Source of the DNA: a virus | Taxonomy: Duplodnaviria; Heunggongvirae; Uroviricota; Caudoviricetes | Direction: 5' to 3' (one strand) | Length of the DNA: 4,163 nucleotides | IMG/VR virus record: IMGVR_UViG_2541047896_000024 | In this document: piece after piece, positions 194-4,163 of the stretch | How positions within the stretch are numbered: position 1 is the stretch's first letter | Layout of the letters: each line of letters begins with the position of its first letter | Translations under genes and position numbers: made by a program | Notes under the pieces: model-generated | Seen by the model: only the letters and a program-made list of their open reading frames with translations | Database searches by the model: none | What the model was told of the DNA's origin: nothing

Positions 194-487
194 TCACCCA
201 CGATTAACCAACAGCCAGACCAGCAGACACGCCACCACCGGCACAGCAAAATCTATCAGGCTTGCCACATCCCAAACACGCGGATCAAAACCGCCCCACC
301 ACGGCATGTTAATCCACTTGCCATGCCCGAACATTTCAATCCAGCGATATTCTGCCTGGGTGTGTTCACGCGCAATGAAGAACGTACAACCGGCTATCGC
401 CCCGTAAACCCAGTTTCCGGCAAAAAGACCAATCATTACCTGCGCAGCCACAGCACAAAGCGCATGAAGAAAAGGTGTTATATCCAT
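194..487 (-). CDS. Small hydrophobic protein (97 aa), predicted membrane protein with 2-3 transmembrane helices
   Basis: ORF 194..487 (-). AGGAGG Shine-Dalgarno directly follows the stop of the upstream 234-aa gene (minus strand TAA-AGGAGGAGTA-ATG). Hydrophobic stretches at about residues 6-39 (FLHALCAVAAQVMIGLFAGNWVYGAIAGCTFFIA) and 72-94 (LIDFAVPVVACLLVWLLV), separated by a Trp-rich polar loop (KWINMPWWGGFDPRVWD). No cleavable signal peptide or lipobox seen. Confidence 0.6.
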   Translation of the reverse strand: MDITPFLHALCAVAAQVMIGLFAGNWVYGAIAGCTFFIAREHTQAEYRWIEMFGHGKWINMPWWGGFDPRVWDVASLIDFAVPVVACLLVWLLVNRG

Positions 488-497
488 TACTCCTCCT

Positions 498-1202
498 TTA
501 TCCGATATCGCTTTGGGAAGTTGATAACAACTTCAATTCTGACTCAAGTTCATCAACTCTTTCAGTCAGTTTCTGGATATGGTGAATCAGTGGAACAACC
601 AGACGTTCGTACATTACACCTTCGGCAACAAGGCCATTGCTGGAAATGGTTTCCGGTGCATCATCTTCGTTGGCTGGTCGCCAGTGAACAAACTGAGGGG
701 CAATTTCTCCTACTTCCTCGGCAATCAATCCATAGAATCCCCAGTCACGCCTGTCATTTTCGCATTGCGACCTGTACCACACAGGGCGCATCCTGAAAAT
801 GAGATCGGCGTGCTCTGAATCTATCGTCTCTACTGAATGTTTATAGCGGATAGACGATGTTGACCGCAGCACAGACGAAATTGCAGGGTCAGGATTAAGA
901 TAAAGATTTGCCGCCGCTGTAGTTGTGCCCAATCCCCATAAATAAAACGCTTCACGGCCAGTCAGCGGGTAAAAATCTCCGCCATAACGACCACTTTCCA
1001 GATCGTTCACTTCCACTTTGTTTTTCAGCTTATTATCCACTTCTGTTTTTGTGTATCTGGTACTGATATCCTGCTTTGCACTGTCCATATCAGTCTGAAG
1101 CGTTGATACTTTTACGTTAATTGAGGAAATATCTTCCTTTGCCTTACTGACATCTCCCTTTAGCGTTTTGATGTCATCAGGAATTACTGTCGATGTAGCC
1201 AT
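498..1202 (-). CDS. Coiled-coil protein with C-terminal peptidase S74-like domain (intramolecular chaperone / chaperone-of-endosialidase type); tail-fibre-like
   Basis: ORF 498..1202 (-) with GAGGAAG Shine-Dalgarno 5 nt upstream of the ATG at 1200..1202. Residues ~9-69 are charged and heptad-like (DIKTLKGDVSKAKEDISSINVKVSTLQTDMDSAKQD...). Residues 116-225 fit the S74 self-cleaving chaperone domain pattern: S116-SIRY-K121 (Ser-Lys dyad spacing as in the SDRRLK motif), ...LIFRMRPVWYR..., ...WGFYGLIAEEVGEIAPQFV..., ...LVVPLIHHIQKLTERVDELESEL. Domain call is by pattern recognition, not a profile search. Confidence 0.7.
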   Translation of the reverse strand: MATSTVIPDDIKTLKGDVSKAKEDISSINVKVSTLQTDMDSAKQDISTRYTKTEVDNKLKNKVEVNDLESGRYGGDFYPLTGREAFYLWGLGTTTAAANLYLNPDPAISSVLRSTSSIRYKHSVETIDSEHADLIFRMRPVWYRSQCENDRRDWGFYGLIAEEVGEIAPQFVHWRPANEDDAPETISSNGLVAEGVMYERLVVPLIHHIQKLTERVDELESELKLLSTSQSDIG

Positions 1203-1211
1203 TTTTCTTCC

Positions 1212-1493
1212 TCACATCCAGCTACGGAGTTGATGCTCAACAGCAACCACGTATTCATCGAATAATGACGATATTTGCGAATCATTAATGATGCGCACAT
1301 TTACAAAATATCCGTCCTCCTTAACACATACCGGCTCGCCATCTTCAGTAAGTTCTCCGGTTTCTTTGTACACATTACCTATCACGTCAATAAGAATATC
1401 ATCCTGCATCGACTCGTCATCATAATAGCCAATGCTCTCCATAAAGGCCGAAAAGTCGGCCCTGTCTGCAAATTTGAGTGTTAAATCTTTCAT
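1212..1493 (-). CDS. Hypothetical small acidic protein (93 aa), translationally coupled to stf
   Basis: ORF 1212..1493 (-). Its ATG (complement of 1491..1493) overlaps the stf stop (complement of 1493..1495) as TAATG. GGGGGAG Shine-Dalgarno about 8 nt upstream inside the stf 3' end. Asp/Glu-rich, no hydrophobic segment. No family recognised from memory. Confidence 0.6.
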   Translation of the reverse strand: MKDLTLKFADRADFSAFMESIGYYDDESMQDDILIDVIGNVYKETGELTEDGEPVCVKEDGYFVNVRIINDSQISSLFDEYVVAVEHQLRSWM

Positions 1494-3895
1494 TAGATTG
1501 ACTCCCCCATCTGAGCATCAGTCAATGCCTTGTGCCAAATACGCAGATTTCGAACGTGTCCAAATAGGTGACGGTTGCCGGATGATGATTGACCACCAAT
1601 ATTAATGAAGCCTCCTGTATATTTGTGTTTTTTATAAGGAGAAACTACCTTAGCACCAATATTACCGTTAACCACAACACACAATTCTCGACTTTCTGTG
1701 AATCTAAAGCCGATAATGCTTTTTCTCTCTGGTCGTTCTATAACGCTTTTATATTCTATTTTAGTGCCTTTACCATTTGTAATGATTGCGCGTGCTCCCA
1801 AAGATGTATACCCCAAATACATATAACTTTCATCTGCAATTTCAGTTGTATCTCCCGTAGTGGAAATATTAAGAATACGTGCGCTACCTTCTTTGTTTGG
1901 CGATTCATCCCAATTGGTATTAACTTCTGCTAATGAACTAATAGCGGGATTGCACCAATTTAGAGAAATGGGGACCGTTACAATATCGCTGGCGCGTGTT
2001 ACAGGGGATGCGCCTGTTATAATAAACGATGAAGCGCATGCCCCACCTTCAACTTGAGGGGTCGCAATATAAATATAATCATCCGCGCCAGTGCCCACTC
2101 CTTTTGCCGGGGCATACTGAACCATTCCACCTATCATATTTTCTGTATCAAGTGCCTTAATTGTCGCCTCAAAAAAGATCCATTTGCTTGCTTCATCTTT
2201 AACAGCCCTTGCAGTAATGCGATTAGCGGCACCACCCGTCTTATCAATAGATAAATCTGTCGTATTTAAGTAAGCGTCACCTAAGAATGTGTAGGTAGAA
2301 CCATCATAGTTTTCAAATCGTAATCGGCATCTTAAATTTGGAGTGCCACTTTGCACCCTGCATGATATGGTTACATACTTTTCTCCGCCTGTTACATCAA
2401 AACCTTTACTGCCGGAAACGGTTACTATGTTAATCGCTGAAATTTGCCCTACCATTTCTGGTTTTAATGTAAATTTTGCGTACTGGAATCCGAAATCATC
2501 TACACCTGATGCACTTAAGATCATATTTGACGACTTGTTCCATTTAGTCGGATTTGTTGAATTGATTAGCAGGTTAGTTCTTTGCCCCTCAATAAGCAGG
2601 CCATCACGTTCAAATCGTGGCTCGTCAATGGCAGCCTCTGTCAGCACACCAGATTTATTAATGTAAGTTGCTTTCGATGCGCGTTTAAACTTTACAATCT
2701 TGTCGCCAGGCATTGTTATTTCATCGTCGCCAATAACAATTTTTTTATATGATGGCGAAAAGCCCGTAATCATATCCAGTGAATCGTTAAACGGTATCCA
2801 CACATCAGGCAGTGGCTGTAAGACATATTTATACGGCTCTGCTGCCTGACTTGCATACTCTCTGGCTGCGTCTTCACTTGCTTTAGCTGCTGTCTGGCTT
2901 GCTGCCGATGCTTGCGCCGAGTTCGCCGCCGCAGTCTCGCTCGCCTTTGCGTTGGTTTCACTGGTTTTTGCTGCTTTTTGACTGTTAGCTGATGCAGTGG
3001 CAGAAGCAGCCGCCGCGCTTGCAGAACTGGCTGCGGCACTCTCGCTTTGGGCCGCTGCATCCTGACTGCTTTTCGCCGCAGTTTCACTGGCTTTGGCATT
3101 CGTTTCGCTGGTCTTCGCTGCCGTCTGGCTGGACTTTGCGTTAGTTTCACTCGTCTTCGCAGCTTTCTGGCTGTTAGCCGCAGCAGTTGCTGATCCAGCT
3201 GCTGAAGTCGCAGAACCGGCTGCCGCGCTCTCGCTTTGGGCTGCTGCAACCTGGCTGTTTTTTGCCGCAGTTTCACTGGCTTTGGCATTCGTTTCGCTGG
3301 TTTTCGCTGCCGTCTGGCTGGACTTTGCGTTGGTTTCGCTCGTCTTTGCGGCTGTCTCGCTATTTTTCGCGTTGGTTTCTGATTTTTTGGCTGCTGTCGC
3401 GGAGTTTGCCGATGCAGTCTTTGAGGTCGCTGCCGCCTGTGCACTATTAGCTGCATTCGTTTCTGAGGTTTTCGCCGCGTTCTTCGATGATGCCGCTGCA
3501 GTTTCGGATTTCTTTGCCGCCGCTGCGCTCTGAGAGGCGGCTTCAGCGTTGCGTGCCGCTTCTTCCACCATTTCCTCAAAACGACGCAATGCCTCCGGCA
3601 TGACATCATCTTCCGTCATGGCACCGAGAAAATCATTCAGCGTCCCCGGCTTAGAATCTTCATACACGGTGATGGTCCCGGCATGTGAAGGCGAAAAACC
3701 TTCAACCAGCAGGATAACGCTGTACTGGCCATACTCAACATCCATACTGTAACGCCCGGCTTCATCCGGATTTTCTGAGGCCAGCGTGTTCACTACCACC
3801 GTGGTGCTGTTACGTTTTGCTTTCAGCTGGATTGAGCAGTTCTGTACCGGTTTTCCTGTGCCGTCTTTCAGTACACCTGAAATCTTTACTGCCAT
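1493..3895 (-). CDS. stf: Side tail fibre protein, lambda Stf family (800 aa) with a divergent C-terminal receptor-binding region
   Basis: ORF 1493..3895 (-). The N-terminal ~115 aa (MAVKISGVLKDGTGKPVQNC...YSMDVEYGQYSVIL...HAGTITVYEDS...) match the lambda Stf N-terminus as I recall it. G-rich Shine-Dalgarno (GGGGGG) 3 nt upstream of the ATG at 3893..3895. Residues ~118-350 are Ala/Ser/Thr-rich heptad-like repeats (KTSETNA/KSSQTAA...). C-terminal 450 aa are non-repetitive and end in ...GFINIGGQSSSGNRHLFGHVRNLRIWHKALTDAQM, which resembles the C-terminal strand of ConA-like/LamG lectin domains. Confidence 0.92.
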   Translation of the reverse strand: MAVKISGVLKDGTGKPVQNCSIQLKAKRNSTTVVVNTLASENPDEAGRYSMDVEYGQYSVILLVEGFSPSHAGTITVYEDSKPGTLNDFLGAMTEDDVMPEALRRFEEMVEEAARNAEAASQSAAAAKKSETAAASSKNAAKTSETNAANSAQAAATSKTASANSATAAKKSETNAKNSETAAKTSETNAKSSQTAAKTSETNAKASETAAKNSQVAAAQSESAAAGSATSAAGSATAAANSQKAAKTSETNAKSSQTAAKTSETNAKASETAAKSSQDAAAQSESAAASSASAAAASATASANSQKAAKTSETNAKASETAAANSAQASAASQTAAKASEDAAREYASQAAEPYKYVLQPLPDVWIPFNDSLDMITGFSPSYKKIVIGDDEITMPGDKIVKFKRASKATYINKSGVLTEAAIDEPRFERDGLLIEGQRTNLLINSTNPTKWNKSSNMILSASGVDDFGFQYAKFTLKPEMVGQISAINIVTVSGSKGFDVTGGEKYVTISCRVQSGTPNLRCRLRFENYDGSTYTFLGDAYLNTTDLSIDKTGGAANRITARAVKDEASKWIFFEATIKALDTENMIGGMVQYAPAKGVGTGADDYIYIATPQVEGGACASSFIITGASPVTRASDIVTVPISLNWCNPAISSLAEVNTNWDESPNKEGSARILNISTTGDTTEIADESYMYLGYTSLGARAIITNGKGTKIEYKSVIERPERKSIIGFRFTESRELCVVVNGNIGAKVVSPYKKHKYTGGFINIGGQSSSGNRHLFGHVRNLRIWHKALTDAQMGESI
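2846..3545. repeat. Degenerate tandem repeats inside stf: about three 189-nt (63-aa) units with 21-nt (7-aa) sub-periodicity
   Basis: Direct comparison at a 189-nt offset: 3078..3140 and 3267..3329 are nearly identical (gcagtttcactggctttggcattcgtttcgctgg...ccgtctggctggactttgcg); 2944..2999 versus 3133..3188 is about 80% identical. A 21-nt periodicity is visible at 3327..3400 (gcgttggtttcgctcgtcttt / gcggctgtctcgctatttttc / gcgttggtttctgattttttg). Boundaries are approximate. Confidence 0.75.
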
Positions 3896-3906
3896 ATTCC
3901 CCCCAC

Positions 3907-3932
3907 AAAAAAGCCCACCTGAACCGGCGGGC
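3907..3932 (-). terminator. Rho-independent terminator downstream of lom
   Basis: On the minus-strand transcript: stem GCCCGCC (3926..3932) / GGUGGGC (3913..3919) with one G-U wobble, 6-nt loop (3920..3925), followed by a U6 run (complement of the A-run 3907..3912). The hairpin pairs better on the minus strand than on the plus strand (A-C mismatch there). Confidence 0.6.
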
Positions 3933-3959
3933 TGTCATAACACTGTGTTACCTGGCTAA

Positions 3960-4163
3960 TCAGAATTTATAACCGACACCCACGATGAAACCGTCAGTGC
4001 GCCAGTCACCACTGCCAGAACCTTCATAAGCAATATCAATGGCCACGGATTCGGTCGGGTTAAACTGCACGCCAGCCCCCCACGCCAGAGACGTGTTGCT
4101 GTGGCGACCGTCATCACTTCCGGTCAGCACATCGTGCGTTTTCCCCTTGTTGTCAGTTACGCG
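3960..4163 (-). CDS. lom: 3' end of lom (Ail/Lom/PagC/OmpX-family outer-membrane beta-barrel protein); 5' part lies beyond the window edge
   Basis: Minus-strand translation of 3963..4163 gives ...SLAWGAGVQFNPTESVAIDIAYEGSGSGDWRTDGFIVGVGYKF*, ending in the aromatic-terminal GVGYKF beta-strand typical of this family; stop TGA is the complement of 3960..3962. Position immediately upstream of stf matches the lambda order J-lom-stf-tfa. Confidence 0.85.
   Translation of the reverse strand, partial: RVTDNKGKTHDVLTGSDDGRHSNTSLAWGAGVQFNPTESVAIDIAYEGSGSGDWRTDGFIVGVGYKF

Follow-up and report, generated by a model that had tools for sequence, protein, structure and literature searches.

A stand-alone S74 fibre gene in an Escherichia coli lambdoid prophage is probably a minimal distal subunit of a two-component side tail fibre

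The window analysed here is a 4,163-nucleotide stretch of a Caudoviricetes genome (IMG/VR record IMGVR_UViG_2541047896_000024), and our subject is a small gene within it, the mini-fibre gene, whose 234-residue product ends in a predicted self-cleaving S74 chaperone domain. By its sequence, the window is part of an E. coli lambdoid prophage: as a whole it gives a ~97% match to many E. coli chromosomes, the mini-fibre DNA is 100% identical in E. coli NCTC86, and the mini-fibre protein is 100% identical in phage PhiR49_1. Every gene in the window lies on the minus strand (Table 1), and the mini-fibre gene follows the side tail fibre gene stf and a gene for a 93-residue protein. On that strand we found no promoter-like or terminator-like site from stf through the three small genes, and the spacing from stf to the mini-fibre gene is tight; because of these two features, the mini-fibre gene is probably co-transcribed with stf.

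Table 1. Features of the window and of the mini-fibre gene, by position in the 4,163-nucleotide stretch.
Feature	Position	Strand	Remarks
lom, 3' end	3960-4163	-	PF06316
Terminator-like hairpin	3912-3933		between the lom 3' end and stf
stf, 800 aa	1493..3895	-	PF08400 N-terminal domain, Ala-rich repeat shaft, C-terminal lectin-like head
Conserved junction block	1159..1601	-	blastn against 2G7b, ESCO3 and E. coli FDAARGOS_1249
93-aa gene (phrog_1361)	1212..1493	-	its ATG and the stf stop overlap by one base
Shine-Dalgarno sequence GAGGA	1209..1213	-	read from the sequence; overlaps the TGA stop of the 93-aa gene
Mini-fibre gene	498..1202	-	234 aa, 26.3 kDa precursor, ATG start; stop codon 498-500
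Codons 1-15, MATSTVIPDDIKTLK, proposed anchor to the proximal fibre complex	1158..1202	-	conserved N-terminal peptide
Six-heptad alpha-helical coiled coil, residues 7-49	1056..1184	-	heptad core and AlphaFold2 helix
Short pre-cleavage tip, residues 71-115	858..992	-	C-terminal end of the predicted mature protein
S116-S-I-R-Y-K121, predicted nucleophile and general base	840..857	-	predicted cut between T115 and S116
S74/ICA intramolecular chaperone domain, residues 116-234	501..857	-	13.8 kDa; long C-terminal helix 198-231
97-aa predicted membrane protein (phrog_1443)	194..487	-	neighbour downstream of the mini-fibre gene

The first-pass annotation had described a separate 234-residue gene in which a coiled coil is joined to an S74 domain with S116 and K121 as its catalytic pair, and our analysis bears this out. 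The Pfam search it had proposed gives a significant match of PF13884 (Peptidase_S74) to residues 116-172 (E 4.6e-6; score 27.3 bits, gathering cut-off 22 bits), with an alignment that spans profile positions 1-57 of 58 and begins at S116 itself. The two catalytic codons (S116, nt 855-857; K121, nt 840-842) lie in an S-S-I-R-Y-K motif with the S-x4-K spacing of the S74 family, and an alignment of 35 homologues shows K121 in every sequence and S116 conserved to at least 90%. The domain occupies the extreme C-terminus, extending to residue 234 of 234, and the part upstream of it is a heptad coiled coil. From this motif we infer cleavage before S116, for which the calculated masses are 12.6 kDa for the mature chain and 13.8 kDa for the freed domain.

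Structure prediction and comparison agree with this assignment. In the AlphaFold2 monomer model, the C-terminal domain has block-mean pLDDT (predicted local distance difference test) scores of 65 for residues 121-130 and 77-93 for residues 131-230. Foldseek matches the predicted fold of residues 120-234 to the ICA domain of MyRF (7dc3; E 6e-5, probability 1.0) and, more weakly, to 3gw6 (endosialidase) and 3gud (GA-1; E 0.15-0.6). By sequence, the closest solved structure is 8hqz_d, the C-terminus of DT57C LtfA (E 4.9e-7), and a PDB search with the family profile added nothing beyond 8hqz. The domain shares its Ser-Lys motif, length of ~120 residues, fold and final helix with the ICA domains of endosialidase K1F (3GW6), GA-1 gp12 (3GUD), T5 pb1 and MyRF (7DC3), which are classed as S74 in MEROPS. 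The cargo differs: in these proteins it runs to hundreds of residues of beta-helix or receptor-binding structure, whereas here it is 115 residues, mostly coiled coil. A total of 3,465 representatives match the mini-fibre protein at E <= 1e-3, and nearly all of the best 150 align only to residues ~85-226, with the aligned region forming the C-terminal end of proteins of 183-1,284 residues. The earlier statement that S74 domains usually end large proteins is thus broadly true for the best 150 of the 3,465, although short S74 proteins are not rare.

The predicted mature part comprises a coiled coil, a short tip and an N-terminal peptide. Its coiled coil has an uninterrupted a/d core (I7, I11, L14, V18, A21, I25, I28, V32, L35, M39, A42, I46), and the AlphaFold2 model places a helix at residues 9-47 with a block-mean pLDDT of ~60-83 that peaks over residues 11-40. 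Compared with the 234-residue form, 227-residue forms lack exactly one heptad (DVSKAKE); since natural length variants differ by seven residues, the coiled-coil register is preserved. About 45 residues separate the coiled coil from the cleavage site, with no recognisable binding domain among them, and residues 62-115 fall below a pLDDT of 50 in the monomer model, as would be expected of an intertwined trimeric element modelled as a monomer. Residues ~45-234 are 57-61% identical to the last ~185 residues of two long lambdoid Stf proteins, P0066 and P0067, and the C-terminal end of P0067 (...ELESELKLLSTSRSDIG) is almost identical to the mini-fibre tail; the N-terminal peptide was not found inside either protein. 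As the tip and chaperone module ends large lambdoid Stf proteins too, it is a standard fibre end that has been moved by recombination.

The N-terminal peptide links the mini-fibre protein to a family of genes in one conserved setting. We identified the same three-gene cassette, encoding in order a lectin-headed fibre of ~650-800 residues, a protein of ~92 residues and a protein ending in S74, in lambdoid phages (PhiR49_1, IdasGreatGrand and 2G7b), T1-like Drexlerviridae (KarlJaspers, XY3 and ~45 others), a Nonagvirus (ESCO3) and T5-like Tequintavirus (HMD-P4, IrisVonRoten and mar004NP2). An IMG/VR scan for the mini-fibre itself returned 80 loci with proteins 91-100% identical, and in 80/80 the third gene lies directly after the lectin-head fibre and the ~92-aa gene. 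Across the four phage groups, third-gene products begin with a common peptide, M(A/V)TxTxIPxDIxxLK, which reads MATSTVIPDDIKTLK, MATVTVIPSDITKLK or MVTKTVIPTDITKLK depending on the phage. All those compared end in an S74 domain, and their lengths range from 221 to 589 residues: 221-245 in T1-like phages, 234 in the window, 333 in HMD-P4, 345-351 in 2G7b and ESCO3, and 574-589 in IrisVonRoten and mar004NP2. The large fibres share a homologous C-terminal head that runs from QPLPDVWIPFNDSLDMITGF to GGQTxxGxRHLFGHxRNFRIWHKxLTDxQ; the head of IrisVonRoten Gp22 has been described as galectin-like (bioRxiv 10.1101/2024.09.12.612763).

The ~92-residue proteins also constitute one family, which is present without a third gene after the lectin-headed fibres of phage 21, ev243 and the rV5-like phage EmilHeitz; because it occurs there too, this protein is tied to the head and not to the third gene. 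The 93-residue protein of the window was found in 183 phage records from lambdoid, T1-like, Dhillonvirus, Queuovirinae, T5-like and rV5-like phages, and in those groups every fibre bearing this lectin-like head is followed by it. It belongs to no Pfam or NCBIfam family, and the alpha/beta sandwich predicted for it gave no informative match; it could be a head chaperone or adaptor. We also sought a head segment restricted to third-gene cassettes, which might have represented a docking element, and found none: the same head subtype occurs in KarlJaspers, where the third gene is present, and in phage 21, where it is absent. A divergent 89-residue form of the small protein accompanies a MVTKTVIP variant of the anchor peptide in 3/3 versus 0/77 loci. 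This association is suggestive of covariation, but linkage of the two sequences, 13 nt apart, explains it equally well.

Comparison of related loci shows how the cassette has been exchanged. The conserved junction block begins ~36 codons before the end of stf, takes in the 93-aa gene and stops after codon 15 of the third gene. To one side, positions 2573-4163 (Stf N-terminus, shaft and head start) are homologous to 2G7b and FDAARGOS_1249, and to the other, homology covers positions 1-488 with 2G7b and 118-488 with FDAARGOS_1249. Neither genome has homology to the head body (1602-2572) or the third-gene body (489-1158), and in both the third-gene slot holds an allele of 345/346 residues. Similarly, other E. 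coli genomes match nt 1-44 of the gene at 100% identity where a different 346-residue allele begins. Since the head body and the third-gene body are both variable beside a conserved junction, they represent two cassettes that are exchanged independently. In agreement with this, across the 80 loci mini-fibre proteins that are 91-100% identical are paired with Stf heads only 35-100% identical to that of the window, and the hypervariable centre of the head is probably what chiefly determines host range at this locus. Phage 21 and ev243 cleanly lack the third gene, with homology resuming at position 498/499.

This conserved setting bears on whether the mini-fibre protein works with Stf at all, or is an independent small fibre attached elsewhere on the virion, such as at the tail tip, collar or head. 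A weak similarity of residues 10-51 to regions of 'minor head protein' in Bacillus phages, and PHROG matches of the 'head and packaging' kind, could be taken to point away from the side fibre. The Bacillus matches, however, are confined to low-complexity coiled coil. Moreover, even in phage groups whose tails are otherwise unlike, strict synteny places the gene right behind the lectin-head fibre and its ~92-aa partner, and the junction block ties the anchor peptide to the 93-aa gene and to the C-terminus of Stf. We therefore consider attachment at another site highly unlikely.

The mini-fibre gene is a working gene under purifying selection. Its open reading frame (ORF) is intact, with an ATG start and a length of 227-241 residues, in 80/80 loci, which between them hold 47 different DNA alleles encoding 41 different proteins. 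For 34 alleles of 234 residues, pairwise Nei-Gojobori comparison gives a proportion of synonymous differences (pS) of 0.127, a proportion of non-synonymous differences (pN) of 0.020 and a ratio of non-synonymous to synonymous rates (dN/dS) of 0.145. Within the protein, dN/dS is lower in the tip (0.11) and the S74 domain (0.12) than in residues 1-15 (0.20) and the coil (0.23), and no segment exceeds 0.31. The gene is also common: 740 of 5,426 complete E. coli genomes (~14%) carry it with at least 80% coverage, PGAP/RefSeq names the product there 'tail fiber domain-containing protein', and annotated homologues occur in many T1-like phages, so the rarity implied by the first-pass annotation was overstated. 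A GTDB scan beyond Escherichia revealed no credible carrier. Assemblies of Collinsella, Corallococcus and Alkalicoccobacillus include contigs of 267-2,836 bp bearing the gene, which look like contamination or binning error; for Corallococcus and Alkalicoccobacillus, the contig names give a read coverage under 1.

In five T1-like records, a tblastn match to the mini-fibre gene falls into two pieces. In orkinos, an extra C in a TTTTTACCCCC run at ~2840-2850 (window codons ~77-80, within the tip) yields ORFs of 86 and 168 residues. This split may be a homopolymer sequencing error, or the gene may really, and perhaps repeatedly, have been inactivated on K-12 hosts; in T1-like and T5-like phages, lateral fibres are not needed on rough K-12 hosts (PMC8594841, PMC4728585). 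Such frameshifts, the absence of the gene in some relatives, and the similarity of the mini-fibre tail to the ends of P0066 and P0067 could together suggest a tolerated remnant, in which the 3' end of an ancestral S74-ended Stf was stranded by insertion of the lectin head and the 93-aa gene and is now functionless or nearly so. The expected stops and non-synonymous changes, however, have not accumulated, which largely refutes this explanation, and the same evidence (intact ORFs and purifying selection in every segment) contradicts the earlier suggestion of a degenerate second fibre. Furthermore, the gene has its own Shine-Dalgarno sequence and ATG, and its anchor peptide, missing from the long Stf proteins, is common to third-gene alleles of four phage groups. 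A functionless remnant is thus hardly credible.

Full-length homologues with the same architecture and cassette, 55-60% identical to the mini-fibre protein, are encoded by KarlJaspers (bas06_0035) and vB_EcoS_XY3 (GNY05_00056). The T1-like homologues belong to lytic phages, and their coiled coils consist of 11-residue repeats in variable number. They are named 'putative lateral tail fiber chaperone' or 'chaperone of endosialidase'. Our literature search found no characterised stand-alone S74 protein and no experimental work on the T1-like homologues. The RBPseg class TC7 ('coiled-coil N-terminus + S74') may include relatives.

A close counterpart is the lateral fibre of IrisVonRoten (Bas32, Tequintavirus), which has the same three-gene order, a homologous head family and a ~92-residue protein, Gp23. 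Its third-gene product, Gp24, starts with the same type of N-terminal peptide (MVTKTVIPTDITKLK) and ends in S74, as does the window protein. The two differ in size and content: Gp24 has 574 residues and two predicted receptor-binding domains, whereas the window protein has 234 residues, a coiled coil and a 45-residue tip. Their S74 subtypes also differ (SDSRLK in Gp24 versus SSIRYK). Gp24 has been described as a 'T-shaped' distal fibre carried on the proximal fibre Gp22 and equipped with an intramolecular chaperone (IMC) at its C-terminus, with the Gp24-Gp22 attachment being an AlphaFold-Multimer prediction (bioRxiv 10.1101/2024.09.12.612763).

A second system of this kind is that of the T5-like phage DT57C, whose lateral fibres are branched, L-shaped assemblies of LtfA and LtfB (Golomidova 2016, PMC4728585; Ayala 2023, PMC10713586). 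Here too a lateral fibre is built of two proteins, of which the first carries the second; each terminates in a self-cleaving pfam13884 domain, and a YTKTEVD shaft repeat is shared as well. LtfA, however, ends in its own IMC and not in a lectin head, and no ~92-aa gene lies between LtfA and LtfB. The LtfA/LtfB fibre is thus a functional analogue. Homology to LtfB was considered and rejected: the N-terminus of DT57C LtfB (MSRPLMPKSG...) is unrelated to the anchor peptide, and only the S74 domains align (E 0.026). The 45-residue N-terminus of the LtfB/phiEco32 gp15 type, which serves in attachment to LtfA, is likewise absent from the window protein. For vB_Eco_mar004NP2, gp51 had been called an ltfB orthologue.

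All third genes encode the same peptide and an S74 domain, and Gp24 is predicted to be distal; the window protein therefore represents the shortest allele of the distal slot. On this basis, we propose that the mini-fibre protein is probably a minimal allele of the distal, or second, subunit of a two-component side tail fibre. The first-pass annotation had offered a small tip or adaptor for the Stf fibre as one option, and it is this option that the distal-subunit slot and the anchor peptide common to four phage groups favour. In the mechanism that we envisage, the C-terminal S74 domain would set three chains in register and act as a template for the six-heptad coiled coil and for a short intertwined tip (residues ~71-115). 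K121 would then activate S116, which would cut the chain on its N-terminal side and free the 13.8-kDa chaperone, leaving a rod of three 12.6-kDa chains. Residues 1-15 would fasten this rod to the lectin-headed Stf at its distal end, either directly or via the 93-residue protein, and the mature stub may provide a second conserved contact, or a spacer, beyond the hypervariable lectin heads; any receptor binding by it is likewise putative.

Several observations weigh against this assignment. Our literature search found no virion proteomics or structure that places a mini-fibre-type protein in the particle, and in vB_Eco_mar004NP2 the note 'confirmed by MS' (mass spectrometry) stands on the large fibre only. 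The mature part has no recognisable receptor-binding domain, and among lambdoid prophages it is conserved and not hypervariable, which is not usual in a determinant of host range. Phage 21 and ev243 manage without the third gene. In several T1-like phages from K-12 isolations the gene appears to be split, so that rough hosts at least would not require it. Finally, two candidates exist for the attachment partner, the conserved end of the head and the 93-residue protein.

Some of the same observations could be explained if the mini-fibre protein were a trans-acting assembly factor that uses its N-terminal peptide to dock, transiently or permanently, where the Stf shaft ends C-terminally and, by trimerising under its own chaperone, sets the register of the three Stf chains, so that after cleavage a small cap or nothing is left. 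Such a factor would be useful, since the Stf shaft is a long Ala-rich coiled coil followed by apparently monomeric lectin domains, and lectin-like heads offer no C-terminal trimerisation module. It would also account for a mature part too small for an obvious receptor-binding domain, for the conservation of the mini-fibre while heads vary, and for labels like 'putative lateral tail fiber chaperone' in the databases. These labels, however, only echo the Pfam title 'Chaperone of endosialidase', and scans of Pfam, NCBIfam and PHROG found no Tfa or assembly-protein family of the lambda Tfa, Mu U or T4 gp38/gp57A type. S74 domains are known to act in cis, on their own chain, as in endoNF and T5 pb1, and positional homologues with the same N-terminus bear large receptor-binding domains and so are fibres. 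Phage 21 and ev243, moreover, have the same head family and ~92-residue partner with no third gene, and near-constant mini-fibres are paired with heads of widely varying identity. Because neither covariation with the client nor indispensability for the head family holds, a dedicated Stf chaperone is disfavoured, and the chaperone in trans that the first-pass annotation had also entertained appears unlikely.

A related possibility is that the chaperone is, in effect, on loan: the anchor would join three Stf shaft ends, and the S74 domain would give the trimer its register in trans and leave behind a coiled-coil cap. The S74 domain would then be the first intramolecular chaperone of its kind to act between molecules, and the mature product would not be a receptor-binding fibre. 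We consider it distinctly unlikely.

The remaining features of the locus concern Stf and its neighbours. Residues 434-635 of Stf match NF048003 ('phage head spike fiber domain'), and its shaft is long and Ala-rich with KTSETNAK repeats. Within the shaft, positions 2927-3364 contain long internal direct repeats, in which ~249-nt blocks of KTSETNAKxSxTAA units are 83% identical; these repeats account for the stf length range of 686-812 residues among relatives. The predicted 97-residue membrane protein downstream of the mini-fibre gene is probably not part of the fibre. It follows the fibre cassette, with or without a third gene, in every lambdoid locus that reaches far enough, and the phrog_1443 protein of phage 21 is annotated with a signal sequence and two transmembrane domains. 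Downstream of the 97-aa gene, at positions 9-40, lies a perfect 11-bp inverted repeat, CCGCAGCACGT(N10)ACGTGCTGCGG, which has no T-run after it and was not called as a terminator. A few kilobases downstream of the cassette, PhiR49_1 (7092-7350) and 2G7b (9590-9888) carry tfa gene fragments of 44-66 residues, which suggests that in lambdoid phages an older stf-tfa distal module was replaced by the lectin-head cassette.

Overall, the mini-fibre gene is most likely a common, annotated and uncharacterised member of two-component side-fibre systems with a self-cleaving chaperone. This does not overturn current views and is only moderately surprising. The public labels 'lateral tail fiber chaperone' and 'chaperone of endosialidase' are probable mis-annotations, as the comparative evidence points to structural distal subunits. 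The 115-residue cargo is the smallest natural one for an S74 chaperone, making the protein a convenient model for the nucleation of trimer folding. Moreover, the junction formed by the last ~36 stf codons, the 93-aa gene and the 15-residue anchor is a natural splice point at which four phage groups swap modules of 221-589 residues, and this conserved junction could serve to retarget lambda-type particles.

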